The notes under the pieces are model-generated. The model searched no databases, was not told the DNA's origin, and worked only from the letters and a program-made list of their open reading frames with translations. 64,000 bases of DNA from a virus (taxonomy: Duplodnaviria > Caudoviricetes). The stretch lies in the IMG/VR virus record IMGVR_UViG_3300015207_000465, positions 1-64,000 of that record. One strand, 5' to 3'. A program made the position numbers and the translations under genes. Positions 40,310 to 55,279 of the stretch are shown piece after piece (the stretch's first letter is position 1; each line of letters opens with the position of its first letter).

Positions 40310-40382
40310 CGCGGGTTGGAGCAGTTGGAAGCTCGCCAGTTTAACTTGCTGGAGGTCGTGGGTTCGAGTCCTACACCCGCCA
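40310..40382 (+). tRNA. Initiator-type tRNA body with anticodon AAC (would read GUU)
   Basis: CGCGGGT/ACCCGCC acceptor with C1xC72 mismatch, A73, D stem GAGC/GCTC (A11:U24), stem CCAGT/GCTGG, loop TTAACTT, T arm GTGGG-TTCGAGT-CCTAC; CCA not encoded. Confidence 0.88.
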
Positions 40383-40413
40383 CAAATAAAAATCACTTTT
40401 ACAAACTTAATCG

Positions 40414-40808: not shown

Positions 40809-41048
40809 ATGCCCAGACAAACTACAACCCAGAGAAACATCGCCCGCGCCGTTGGCGCGCAGCGATACAATGGCGGTGGCCGCTACGGTAGCGGTGGCGG
40901 CGGTCGCTATGTAGGTGAACGCAGAAACGGAACGGCGACAAATAGCGGACGTCGCAATAGCCAACTTGGAACTCGCGAACAGAAACGCGCAGACCTCCGA
41001 TACGCTTTTCGCGATGCTATTCGCGCTGCCGGCGGAACAACCGGCTAA
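40809..41048 (+). CDS. Small Gly/Arg-rich basic protein
   Basis: GGGRY repeats; ATG ORF upstream of the PAPS-reductase-like gene. Confidence 0.65.
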   Translation: MPRQTTTQRNIARAVGAQRYNGGGRYGSGGGGRYVGERRNGTATNSGRRNSQLGTREQKRADLRYAFRDAIRAAGGTTG

Positions 41049-43068: not shown

Positions 43069-43695
43069 GTTAAGAGGCCTAAGTTTAAAAAAAGTTTCAA
43101 CGAAGAGTTGAATCGTAAGTTGTCGGATGGTGGAATAAAACATCATCCCGATGGTTTATATCCTGCTGGGGTGGGTGAATTCCATAAAGCAATTAAAATT
43201 GCTAAAAGAAATAATGGTAATGGGTGGATGGTAGAGAAAAAGGGCAGGGGAAGTTATTCCGGGCTACGCCTCTTTATGTCTAAAGATAAGAAGATGGGAT
43301 TTGCCTTAGATGGCGATAATATAGTGTCTGTCTTTAGCTGTAAGCCAAAAGGAAGTAATGCGATGGGTAAAATTATCCCATTTGCAGTAGCCATGGGTGG
43401 CAGAAGATTGGACTGTTTCGCAGGTGGTCTTCAAAATCTTTATGCCAAGTATGGTGCGCGTCCAACAGGAAAAACACATTTCGACGAGCGATATGCGCCT
43501 CCCGGGTGGGATGGAAAGTCTCATCATCCAATTGTAGCGATGAGATTGCCAAACTCCCTTGAAAAATTGATTAAGGCTTACAACCCAAGACAAAAAGTCA
43601 GCCTTAACGGGGTGCGGTATTATTCTTCGTATAATGACATGGAAAATTCAGCGAGAAAGCGTGGTGCAAGGAATAATATTAAACAAAGCTCTTAG
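43069..43695 (+). CDS. GNAT-like domain protein; proposed GTT start
   Basis: DNIVSVFS..AVAMGGRRLDCF...L..LY.KYG..P....FDERYAPPGWD; frame open from 43060; first ATG far inside; TTG 43108 is the alternative start. Confidence 0.65.
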   Translation, partial: VKRPKFKKSFNEELNRKLSDGGIKHHPDGLYPAGVGEFHKAIKIAKRNNGNGWMVEKKGRGSYSGLRLFMSKDKKMGFALDGDNIVSVFSCKPKGSNAMGKIIPFAVAMGGRRLDCFAGGLQNLYAKYGARPTGKTHFDERYAPPGWDGKSHHPIVAMRLPNSLEKLIKAYNPRQKVSLNGVRYYSSYNDMENSARKRGARNNIKQSS

Positions 43696-43741: not shown

Positions 43742-44335
43742 ATGGCAAAGATTGACGAACTTATCCCATTCATCCTTTACTTTGAAGCCGGCGTAAACGC
43801 GAAGTGCATGAGCCTGCCCCCGGAGCAGATATTTGCACAGGCACGGAAGACCGGCTTTGCGAATGACCCTGACGATGCCGGCGGCGCAACGATGTGCGGC
43901 ATCACGATTGAAACCTACAAGGCATATTGTCGGAAAAAAGGCTATCCCGTGCCGACGGTCGCAAGACTGAAAACTATCAGTTATGAGCAGTGGCGCGACG
44001 TGCTGAAAACGCTTTACTGGGATAGATGGAAAGCCGACGAAATCAGCAGCCAAGCCATCGCGAACAATCTCGTTGATTGGGTATGGGCGAGCGGTGTTCA
44101 CGGCATCAAGATACCGCAGCGCATACTGGGCGTAACGCAAGACGGAATTGTCGGCCCGAAAACGCTGGCGGCTGTCAATGCGGCAAACGAGGCGCAGTTG
44201 TTCACGGCTATCCACGAAGCCCGTATCAGTTTTGTTGACGGCATCGTGCGCAGAAAGCCGAGTCAGAAGAAATTCATCAAAGGCTGGAAACGGCGCATCA
44301 ACGCTATCACCTTATCCGGTCTGAAATTCACTTAA
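43742..44335 (+). CDS. Endolysin (GH108-like plus peptidoglycan-binding domain)
   Basis: FANDPDDAGGATMCGIT, YWD.WKAD.I, DGIVGPKTLAA, FIKGW.RR. Confidence 0.9.
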   Translation: MAKIDELIPFILYFEAGVNAKCMSLPPEQIFAQARKTGFANDPDDAGGATMCGITIETYKAYCRKKGYPVPTVARLKTISYEQWRDVLKTLYWDRWKADEISSQAIANNLVDWVWASGVHGIKIPQRILGVTQDGIVGPKTLAAVNAANEAQLFTAIHEARISFVDGIVRRKPSQKKFIKGWKRRINAITLSGLKFT

Positions 44336-44500
44336 CCCTATAAACGAAGAAAGGAGGTCACAATGAAATCACGCAAATCATGCGGCGGCAAGAAGAAGCC
44401 CGGCAAGGGTGGTAAATGCTGACAACGAAACGAAGATAAAGGTCAGTCGGAAAATTACACAATCCCCGGCTGACCATAAACCCTTAAAAAGCAAAGCAGA

Positions 44501-44701
44501 GTTAGACGCAGGAAAACAAGAGAACAAATAGAAGCCCAAGCATCGCGCCTCAGTGAAGCTAATTGGCGCAGGCGTAATGTGTGGGAAAGCGGCACCGCAT
44601 CCCGTAGGGCAAAAGAGTCACGCGACCGATTGATAGATAAAGCCGAGAAGCGTGCTTTAGTTCAAAACGGATTAAGAATGGCGACCGGGGGGGGCAAATA
44701 G
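44501..44701 (+). CDS. Small Arg-rich protein (66 aa, not in ORF track); proposed GTT start
   Basis: (V)RRRKTREQIEAQASRLSEANWRRRNVWESG...; in-frame TAA at 44477; no ATG/GTG/TTG until codon 27; A-rich leader. Confidence 0.6.
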   Translation, partial: VRRRKTREQIEAQASRLSEANWRRRNVWESGTASRRAKESRDRLIDKAEKRALVQNGLRMATGGGK

Positions 44702-44720
44702 CACACTCCGTTCAAGGATA

Positions 44721-44790
44721 TGCGTGTTAGAGAAGCGGTCATCTCGCCGTCATCAGACGGAAATCGCAAGTTCGACTCTTGCACACGCAG
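44721..44790 (+). ncRNA. tRNA-like RNA with 4-nt anticodon loop
   Basis: TGCGTGT/ACACGCA, GAGA/TCTC, CCGTC-ATCA-GACGG, GCAAG-TTCGACT-CTTGC. Confidence 0.75.
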
Positions 44791-44824
44791 CATAGAAAAA
44801 TAACGGAATTTCATTATCACGACA

Positions 44825-45496
44825 ATGCCGAAGAAGCGAATTAGCAACAAGACACCGCGCAAGCCCAAGGCAACACCCTCGTTTGACTACGAGAGTGAGG
44901 AATTTCTGTCGCGCATTGATGCACTTGCTTTTGAGGGCTTTTACAATACGGAAATCGCTGACGAATTGAACATTAGCCGATACGAATTGGAAATGGCGAT
45001 AAGTCAGTGCGAAAAATTGCGCAACACGATAGCGTCTGCCCGCGAGCGTGCGCGTGCGCAAGGCGCGGAAATGCCATCACCCGCTATGTTCGCAAAGGTC
45101 TGGGCTGAATGTAACGGAAAGCGCACCCTACTGATGAAAAAGTTCGGAATTGGCTGGACTAAACTGCAATCGTGGTTGGCGCAAGAGCCGATATTCGTAG
45201 ATATAATGGCGGAACGCGACCTTGAATTTCTTGAGCAGATTGATGTCGCCAGCCGCATCCTTGCATTGGGCGGTGTGAAAGGAAAGGACAACTTTGCGGG
45301 ATGGAGTCGCTACCCCGACAGTTGGATGATGCGCTATCATCTGAATACACTCGGAAGACGATACGGCTATGGCGAGAATCCTATCCAACAGGAAGCCGAA
45401 GACACCGACATTCCGAAGAATATTGAACAAGGAATCGATATTGAAAGCTGGATTAAGCAGGAAGTGGAACAAAAGAAGCGTGATACGGAACAATGA
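44825..45496 (+). CDS. Terminase small subunit (putative)
   Basis: HTH segments; ATGA-coupled to TerL. Confidence 0.7.
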   Translation: MPKKRISNKTPRKPKATPSFDYESEEFLSRIDALAFEGFYNTEIADELNISRYELEMAISQCEKLRNTIASARERARAQGAEMPSPAMFAKVWAECNGKRTLLMKKFGIGWTKLQSWLAQEPIFVDIMAERDLEFLEQIDVASRILALGGVKGKDNFAGWSRYPDSWMMRYHLNTLGRRYGYGENPIQQEAEDTDIPKNIEQGIDIESWIKQEVEQKKRDTEQ

Positions 45497-53729: not shown

Positions 53730-55013
53730 TCATTGTTGTTTGATTTCAGCAGTCACGCCGTTAGTGTCGGTCACGTCTGCCGGGTTAATCGTTTTTGCGG
53801 TATCGGGATTTTCAGCAGCCACCGACAATCCTAAATCGCAGAAGCCCTTGCAAGCTCCGCGATAGCCGTTGAAAAATTCAGTGGCGGTCATGCGTCGCTT
53901 GTTCGGCATCTGCAATTCAAGTACGGAAAGAAGATTGTCGCCACAGGCGATGTATAGCTTTCGGTCTTGCCAGAATAGCTCGCCGGGCGCATGGTGGCCA
54001 CGCGGTATGTCGGTCTTTTCCGTTCTGAAAATCTTGACGCTCATGGCCTGCTTTCCAAGCATGGCCAGTGAAGTCCAAGCTGATGGGATTGGAGTAAGTG
54101 CGCGTATGAAGTCATAGACGTAATCGGCGGGCTTGAGCCACGGAATGATGCAGTCCTTGCGATGTAGCTTTGGCGCGTAGCATGGCTGGATGAAGTCACA
54201 GATAAGCTCCGACTGAGGAATGGGGTTGCATGAATGGGCTATGCGCTGGATTGCATCGTCTATCATTTCCGCGCCGGCAATGCGTAGCTTGATGTGAACG
54301 TCTTCCGCGTTATCATCTTCATCAATGCCGATGGCAAGATTGTTTATGATGCCGCCGGTGTCGATTTTGTCTTCAAGCATGAACGTTGTCACGCCGGTCA
54401 TGGCATTACCATCCTTGATTGCGGATGCGATGGTGGAAGCACCGCGATACATGGGCAGCATAGATGAGTGGAGGTTGATTGTACCCCACGACGGAATGGT
54501 GTATAGCGCACGTGGCAGTATTCTGAACTCCACTACTACGCCGAGCGTCGCATGAAGATTGTGGATGTGCCGCAGAAATCTATTAGAGTCAAGTTTCCGT
54601 GGTTGAAAAACAAGGATGCCCATAGATTCGGCATAAACCTTGACCGCAGATGGCCGCAGTTTCTTGCCACGCCCGCACGGTTTATCTTCCATAGTTACGA
54701 CTGCCGCGACATCATATCCGTTTTCAACAAGCATTTTTAGCGTGGGAAGCGCAAACTGCCCATTGCCGAAGAATATGATGCGTATTCCCTTGCGTGATAC
54801 AGGCTTGTCAAAATCACGTTCCGGGTATGAAACAATATCAGTTTCGTCAACAATTACATAACCGCCGGATTTCTTCAATCGCAGAAAGTAAGAGCCATCA
54901 TCTTTTGGGTATAAGATTTTGGCTTCCGTAAAAATACCGCCCCCATCATTACCGTGCAGGAGTCTGCTTGGAATTTGGACTGTCTGCCCGACGCGATAAA
55001 GAGGTGTTTTCAT
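53730..55013 (-). CDS. fmt: Phage-encoded methionyl-tRNA formyltransferase homolog with extra N-terminal domain
   Basis: IIFFG..FA, VVT..DKP.GRG.KL, INLHSSMLPMYRGA, TGVTTF..IDTG, YAPKL, QMPNKRRM; ATG 55013 coupled to the XRE stop. Confidence 0.92.
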   Translation of the reverse strand: MKTPLYRVGQTVQIPSRLLHGNDGGGIFTEAKILYPKDDGSYFLRLKKSGGYVIVDETDIVSYPERDFDKPVSRKGIRIIFFGNGQFALPTLKMLVENGYDVAAVVTMEDKPCGRGKKLRPSAVKVYAESMGILVFQPRKLDSNRFLRHIHNLHATLGVVVEFRILPRALYTIPSWGTINLHSSMLPMYRGASTIASAIKDGNAMTGVTTFMLEDKIDTGGIINNLAIGIDEDDNAEDVHIKLRIAGAEMIDDAIQRIAHSCNPIPQSELICDFIQPCYAPKLHRKDCIIPWLKPADYVYDFIRALTPIPSAWTSLAMLGKQAMSVKIFRTEKTDIPRGHHAPGELFWQDRKLYIACGDNLLSVLELQMPNKRRMTATEFFNGYRGACKGFCDLGLSVAAENPDTAKTINPADVTDTNGVTAEIKQQ

Positions 55014-55279
55014 CGCGGCGTGGCGGTTTTGATGTCGATACGTGCGCCGCACTGCGGGCAGATGATTGTTGCCGGGTTGGGTGCGAGGTAGTCTGTGAAT
55101 AGTGATGCAACTGGTACGTCAAGAGCTTCCGCTATCTTTTCAAGGGTAGAGATGTTGGGGCTATTCTTCTCGTTCACGATACTGCCAAGAGTCTGGGGAG
55201 CTATATTCATTTTTTCGGCAAGACTTTTCAGTGTCATACCTTTGGCGGCAACGATTGCTTTAATTCTGAATTTTGACAT
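55010..55279 (-). CDS. XRE-family HTH regulator with zinc ribbon
   Basis: TLKSLAEKM..PNISTLEKIAEALDVPV; CPQCG. Confidence 0.87.
   Translation of the reverse strand: MSKFRIKAIVAAKGMTLKSLAEKMNIAPQTLGSIVNEKNSPNISTLEKIAEALDVPVASLFTDYLAPNPATIICPQCGARIDIKTATPR

Follow-up and report, generated by a model that had tools for sequence, protein, structure and literature searches.

A conserved arginine-rich gene of a Bacteroidales gut prophage appears to begin at GUU, a private start codon matched to an initiator-like tRNA of the phage

How is a protein begun in a reading frame that has no ordinary start codon? The question is raised by a short frame upstream of terS in a prophage of Muribaculaceae-type (Bacteroidales) hosts. 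We analyzed a window of 64,000 nucleotides (the whole stretch of DNA considered here), which is part of a 103-kb provirus record and whose sequence occurs in mouse-gut metagenomes. A preliminary description of this DNA had pointed to an unannotated, arginine-rich ORF of 66 codons, and the sequence bears this out: the plus-strand frame at 44501-44701 opens with GTT (44501-44503), contains 66 sense codons and ends with TAG (44699-44701). Also as described, an in-frame TAA (44477-44479, plus strand, frame 2) closes the frame seven codons 5' of GTT, with a second in-frame stop, TGA, further upstream at 44471. After the TAA comes an A-rich, unstructured leader (44480-44500, plus strand), which ends in AGCAGA and has no Shine-Dalgarno (SD) site. 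The statement that no near-cognate start occurs before codon 27 holds for ATG, GTG and TTG, the first of which in this frame is GTG 44579 (codon 27), but it overlooked an in-frame ATA at 44528 (codon 10). Thus, no canonical start stands at the conserved N-terminus or anywhere between TAA 44477 and codon 27, and the conserved N-terminus likewise lacks one in homologues L016, L033-L048, L052 and the L085 group. Of the surrounding motif, GAGTTAR, the window contains 12 copies, roughly what chance predicts for so short a motif; only three of them, at 43069 (208 codons), 44501 (66 codons) and 61220 (362 codons), head long frames without a canonical start, and all three read AGAGTTA.

The reading that we prefer, with a probability of about 0.8, is that the frame encodes a 66-residue, two-helix protein of pI 11.8, initiated at GUU by a phage tRNA with anticodon AAC that is encoded at 40310-40383 of the same window.

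An open frame of 66-73 codons is unremarkable by chance, and the case for coding therefore rests on comparison. Homologues occur on about 30 viral contigs: tblastn confirmed 4 and then 20 viral contigs as relatives, seven predicted proteins were matched in a set of 5.8 billion proteins, and a profile search of 1.8 billion cluster representatives returned 19 matches. The comparison that the preliminary description had proposed comes out in favor of the frame, which is conserved and whose homologues are under purifying selection. By the Nei-Gojobori method, dN/dS is 0.18 between the window and L016, 0.25 between the window and L052, and 0.04-0.07 inside the L034 clade, with synonymous sites saturated in the deeper pairs. 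On this comparative evidence, 44501-44701 is a genuine, conserved protein-coding gene. Some family members (L003-5, P0012-17, P0022 and P0024) are longer: they start with an ordinary ATG and carry an additional conserved domain at the C-terminus. Against 50,697 records of cultured or deposited phages, tblastn gave no match, and in a DNA search of phages the endolysin was the sole match. The protein family was found in none of five bacterial genomes with tRNA(AAC) prophages, two of which carry the tRNA-like module described below together with a different small GTT-start ORF.

The 66 residues include 14 arginines and 5 lysines, for a net charge of +11, and structure prediction places helices at residues 7-25 and 31-63 with a mean pLDDT of 79.5. 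An invariant core, R-L-S-x-x-N-W-R-R, is followed later in the protein by S-R-R-A-K-x-x-R-D-x-L-I. The best E-values against Pfam and PHROG were 0.02 or worse; a profile search of PDB sequences gave no match at E<=1, the ESM Atlas gave none, and Foldseek searches of PDB and BFVD returned E-values of 2 or worse. Our best guess, close to the role suggested in the preliminary description, is that the product may bind nucleic acids and act late, in connection with the ParB-like gene and the genes for packaging.

The position at which this protein begins can be read from its relatives. When the short forms are aligned (alignment A1, with HMM mapping onto stop-to-stop frames), profile position 1 is GTT, GTC or ATG: GTT in the window, L016, the L033-L046 groups and L052; GTC in L047 and the L085/L131 group; and ATG in P0002 and P0004. 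In L048 and L049-51, whose proteins are shorter by one residue, the starting ACC and ATG, respectively, fall on the next profile position. Homologues that start with ATG (P0002, P0004 and L049-51) begin where GTT stands. In L033, L052, L085 and L048, a TGA stop abuts the start on its 5' side, so no in-frame translation can come from further upstream. The clades cannot be aligned 5' of the start, and the codons 3' of it are conserved. An A at position -1 is invariant before all private starts, as we term the non-ATG starts of the relatives, and is absent before the ATG starts. As judged from these alignments, the N-terminus is at GTT 44501, in the GA-GTT-A context where the preliminary description had put it.

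It might be argued that only a shorter product is made, by way of the host initiator, from GTG 44579 (40 aa), the first canonical start, or from the near-cognate ATA 44528, the upstream codons being an untranslated leader. However, codons 2-15 taken alone have a pS of about 0.32-1.0 against a pN of 0.07-0.40, with pS far above pN in 21 of 21 pairs, so that the segment skipped by either start is itself under protein-level selection. Where the window has GTG, most homologues have ACN (Thr) and L048 has ATT; the isoleucine position varies among ATA, ATT, ATC and CTC, and the ATG homologues start at the position of GTT. We regard a shorter product as very unlikely.

The gene shares its strand with the genes for lysis and packaging. 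Upstream of it on the plus strand are the endolysin gene (43742-44335) and a 19-codon ORF rich in Cys, Lys and Gly (44363-44422), which has an ATG and a strong AGGAGG site. Our reading of the alignment is that the peptide of this ORF is the same in L006, L007, L008 and L014, with synonymous differences only, and it is therefore probably a real micro-protein. A conserved 10-bp hairpin (GGTCAGTCGG / CCGGCTGACC) at 44441-44476 on the plus strand ends 24 nt 5' of GTT. Its predicted stability (-17.9 kcal/mol, z -3.8) was reached by 0 of 200 shuffles, and relatives keep the stem while loop size varies; no terminator-like T run follows it. A scan for promoters of the sigma-70 type, as distinct from Bacteroidales types, and for intrinsic terminators came back empty around the ORF.

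At the 3' end, a G8 run (44687-44694, plus strand) codes for the Gly-rich C-terminus, and the identical sequence, G8 run included, is present on contigs of three studies. The length of the run (G7 in L006 and L017, G8 in L013, G9 in L016) sets the end of the frame. In the window the frame ends before a tRNA-like gene; in L006, L016 and L017 the TAG lies inside the D arm of that gene, and in L013 the frame runs through the entire tRNA-like gene. This gene (44721-44791, plus strand) lies 20 nt past the ORF stop and 33 nt before terS (44825-45496, plus strand), which is followed by an intein-bearing terL. ARAGORN calls it 'tRNA-???': acceptor, D and T arms are full and the cloverleaf has a z of -3.0, and the anticodon arm is stunted, with a 4-nt loop. 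In relatives it lies at L006:2900-2970, L013:2899-2966, L016:2900-2970 and L017:2899-2967. In five lineages the arms are perfect and the T stem shows a compensatory change from A:U to G:C; the anticodon arm is stunted in all lineages, with a loop of 3-4 nt and varying sequence. Since the D arm and the variable/T-stem junction closely resemble the L034-type GAC tRNA (L034:3607-3685), the tRNA-like gene may be an anticodon-less derivative of the GAC initiator-like tRNA lineage. An Rfam search over 44350-44850 gave one chance-level match only and did not report the tRNA-like gene.

A start-less frame beside a tRNA-like structure without an anticodon calls tmRNA to mind, and with the conserved hairpin upstream it could be proposed that the frame is not translated independently at all, either as part of a tmRNA-like structured RNA or as a region reached by frameshift or readthrough, a frame-0 ORF (44409-44531) overlapping its 5' end. 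We give this proposal hardly any credence. ARAGORN calls no tmRNA; the phage element has an acceptor C3:G70 pair in place of the G3:U70 of tmRNA and lies 3' of the frame rather than around it, so that the frame, of 66-107 codons in the family, is outside the tRNA-like domain. Most family members stand far from any tRNA-like element, beside a ParB-like gene. We also rejected stop-codon reassignment or readthrough from the 19-codon ORF, where three stops (TGA, TGA and TAA) block passage, and a frameshift from the frame-0 ORF, since in relatives a stop directly adjoins the start and leaves no upstream frame to shift from. A purely RNA role is contradicted by the protein-level selection.

In most relatives the gene is one of several similar small basic genes arranged in tandem between the tRNA and the ParB-like gene. 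In the window's clade it occupies a slot just before terS, whose interchangeable small ORFs begin with Val-Arg-Arg and end Gly-rich. This slot (44436-44720) is cassette-like and is found as the same slot in L006, L013, L016, L017, L186 and L187. Its flanks are conserved, with the hairpin, the A-rich leader and GA-GTT-A on the 5' side and the G run, CAAAT and the tRNA-like gene on the 3' side; between them lie three or four dissimilar types of small ORF, sometimes two in tandem. Elsewhere in the window (40812-41048) we observed a 78-aa Arg/Gly-rich ORF that starts with an ordinary ATG and, like the GTT-start ORF, ends Gly-rich. It is located between a 117-aa gene without a Pfam match and the PAPS-reductase-like and ParB-like genes, the position that the small basic genes occupy in relatives.

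The proposed decoder of the GTT start is the initiator-like tRNA encoded at 40310-40383 on the plus strand, with anticodon AAC in the loop UUAACUU. Two hallmarks of initiators are present: a 1:72 mismatch (C1xC72) and an A11:U24 pair, in the D stem GAGC/GCUC. The mismatch is C1xU72, C1xA72 or G1xA72 in the tRNAs of relatives, L057 (paired U1-A72) being the exception. The three consecutive G:C pairs of initiator anticodon stems are lacking, the stem being CCAGU/GCUGG (A29:U41, G30:C40, U31.G39), and U occupies positions 32 and 37, U37 being unusual. In E. coli, these three G:C pairs matter for P-site binding. The same acceptor (CGCGGG...CCCGC), A11:U24-bearing D arm, AGGUCG junction and T arm recur in all of the phage tRNAs. 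When the genomes of Lepagella muris and Paramuribaculum intestinale are searched, the sole full-length match besides the prophage copy is a tRNA(CAT), at 70-74% identity, which has the initiator hallmarks C1xC72 and GGG/CCC in the anticodon stem and which we take, from these features, as the host initiator. No elongator valine tRNA in the two Muribaculaceae genomes matches the phage tRNA over its full length; its nearest cellular relative there is of the initiator type, not an elongator. Prophages with an identical tRNA(AAC) anticodon arm (L181-L185, L186 and L189) were also seen in cultured Muribaculaceae, namely Lepagella muris NM04_E33, Paramuribaculum intestinale DSM 100749 and Muribaculaceae Isolate-036; L. 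muris also carries the tRNA-like module and a small ORF starting GA-GTT-AAA.

When phages are compared, orthologues begin with the codon that fits the anticodon of the initiator-like tRNA. Anticodon AAC goes with a GTT start in G000, G002 and G020 (L052), and G001 and G003-G005 combine the AAC tRNA with other GTT-start ORFs in the terS-proximal slot; no contig with a GTT-start relative of the window's clade lacks this tRNA. With anticodon GAC, the start is GTC in G011 (L047), the L085 group and L131, and GTT in G016-G019 and G021, as in the L033/L043/L045 groups, GAC being able to read GUU through G:U wobble. Anticodon GGT goes with ACC in G012 (L048). The ATG-start contigs G008 (91% complete), G013, G014 (100%) and G015 have only His, Lys, Ser or Arg tRNAs, an absence that is firm for G014 and G008 only, several contigs being incomplete. 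The first codon thus shifts together with the anticodon, and it would appear that the virus starts this gene at a private codon of its own, although the covariation comprises a small number of independent changes (about three non-ATG states plus ATG) and many of the loci are close relatives. It agrees with the GTT start of the preliminary description.

Finding these tRNAs depends on the method. In G016 and G017, a homologous GAC tRNA was found at the expected place by direct alignment. The T loop of this tRNA (L034:3607-3685 and L039) is the non-canonical GGCGGAG, and both ARAGORN and Rfam miss it. The GAC tRNA of G019, with a more ordinary T loop, was found by ARAGORN and missed by Rfam and by BLAST with the window tRNA. 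Because tRNAs of this kind escape one or another of the three programs, a result of 'no tRNA found' is unreliable for that group.

The start codons of whole gene arrays follow the same pattern. Directly 3' of the GGT tRNA of G012 (L065, 2522-5477, minus strand) lie six small Arg-rich ORFs, five starting with ACC and one with ACT; TGA abuts the start in five of the six, and AGGAGG is found upstream in four. Five small Arg-rich ORFs 3' of the GAC tRNA of G011 (L063/L064, 13632-20638) all start with GTC. Across these two arrays the second codon is almost always AGA, a stop adjoins the start in most ORFs, and several are preceded by AGGAGG. G019 has two small ORFs with a GTT start.

These observations bear on a further reading, in which the gene is real, GUU or a nearby codon is a weak near-cognate start for the ordinary host initiator, and tRNA(AAC) is an elongator-type valine supplement. 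The lack of the three G:C pairs typical of initiators would fit such a role, and non-AUG starts read by the normal initiator tRNA are known from bacteria, namely GUG, UUG, the AUU of infC and AUA (PMC5499595). Genes of that kind resemble ours in having no 5' ATG and in being open to truncation or omission by gene finders. However, their start codons are one position off AUG and involve no extra tRNA, whereas GUU differs from AUG at two positions and the phage codons GUU, GUC and ACC, two or three positions off, track a dedicated tRNA. As the start changes among GTT, GTC and ACC, the anticodon changes with it, and the ATG homologues are without the tRNA. Moreover, the nearest host relative of the phage tRNA is the initiator-type tRNA(CAT) rather than a valine tRNA. 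We therefore consider initiation by the host tRNA unlikely.

Under initiation by the phage tRNA, the steps can be sketched as follows. The 30S subunit would be recruited to the A-rich, unstructured leader, with A at -1 beside the start codon. In the P site, GUU would pair with the AAC anticodon of the phage tRNA and not with the host initiator tRNA; the former would in effect be the host initiator's acceptor, D and T arms with a re-aimed anticodon. A host enzyme would presumably charge this tRNA with valine, given that the identity elements of ValRS are chiefly the anticodon bases. The charged tRNA could then be formylated by a phage formyltransferase-like protein, a possible candidate for which is encoded at 53730-55052 on the minus strand, with Formyl_trans_N (E 3e-29) and Formyl_trans_C (E 3e-19) domains; its connection with the ORF is conjectural. 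The Arg-rich protein would be made only while the phage tRNA is present, and standard gene finders would be expected to miss its gene.

A laboratory counterpart of this scheme exists. Around 1990, the Schulman and RajBhandary groups reportedly worked with initiator tRNAs carrying mutant anticodons. More recently, initiation at GUU was obtained in E. coli with an initiator tRNA engineered to have anticodon AAC (Hutvagner et al., bioRxiv 10.1101/2021.05.25.445580; also 10.64898/2025.12.21.695813). The engineered and phage systems are alike in their initiator-type body, the pairing of AAC with GUU, the expected (formyl-)valine N-terminus and orthogonality to AUG. In contrast to the engineered one, the putative phage system is natural, phage-encoded and conserved across many phages; it has sister versions with GAC and GGT, has lost the three G:C pairs and carries U32/U37, and would operate in SD-independent Bacteroidales hosts. 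In the literature searched we found the engineered system only, and no natural phage GUU initiation by an initiator with anticodon AAC, although an earlier description may exist. We may thus be dealing with the natural form of a mechanism known from the laboratory; new here are a further client gene, covariation across three states within one orthologous family, and a threonine version (ACC with GGU).

Gut phages with suppressor tRNAs recode TAG or TGA in late genes. There, too, a phage-owned tRNA alters the decoding of the phage's own, mostly late, genes and would tie their expression to that tRNA. Stop recoding, however, acts on stop codons at elongation and termination, whereas the private start of the phage would act on a sense codon at initiation.

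The leader of the window's gene is what a Bacteroidales host would lead one to expect. Bacteroidia initiate independently of SD pairing on A-rich, 'Kozak-like' leaders, with AUG starts (PMC6847099; PMC9976891), and the window's leader is likewise A-rich, unstructured and without an SD site. In the L034 (4970-4995), L085, L047 and L048 groups, AGGAGG is found 7-8 nt 5' of the private start, which is unexpected given that Bacteroidia are reported to lack SD pairing (PMC9976891). These phages have the window's gene family and an initiator-like tRNA, and presumably also infect Bacteroidales. In L047, the ParB-like gene just 3' has no AGGAGG before its ATG, in the one phage of this kind that was read.

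A scaffold-pattern scan of viral contigs gave the following anticodons for initiator-like tRNAs: GAC at 62 loci, CAT at 39, AAC at 5, CCT at 3 (L089, L100 and L111), CGT at 1 (L152) and GGT at 1. At two of the three CCT loci (L089 and L111), large genes start at AGG right after a stop, and at the CGT locus the corresponding codon is ACG, over a range of 278-624 codons; these cases hint at AGG and ACG as further private start codons. More broadly, it seems rather likely that Bacteroidales gut phages own a programmable start codon, by which an initiator-derived tRNA (AAC, GAC, GGU and possibly CCU or CGU) starts a set of genes at the matching GUU, GUC or ACC/ACU (possibly AGG or ACG). Small Arg-rich proteins, often arrayed 3' of the tRNA, would be the most constant clients of what would amount to a natural orthogonal initiation, confining proteins to cells that express the tRNA.

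If this is true, the identity of the start codon is not fixed by the host, and one viral tRNA can reset it. A class of phage genes would in that case be systematically overlooked or cut short by standard gene callers, among them the gene at 44501 and the window's major capsid gene. The phages would provide a natural counterpart to the orthogonal initiator tRNAs built in the laboratory, with valine (GUU/GUC) and threonine (ACC) variants that permit compensatory-change tests, and the cultured hosts Lepagella muris NM04_E33 and Paramuribaculum intestinale DSM 100749, which carry tRNA(AAC) prophages, offer experimental access. The finding also points to an uncharacterized family of very small, Arg-rich proteins, associated with the ParB-like gene and the terminase region, as a subject for functional study. 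For the prophage itself it suggests a simple switch, in which late or toxic proteins would stay silent until the phage makes its own tRNA.
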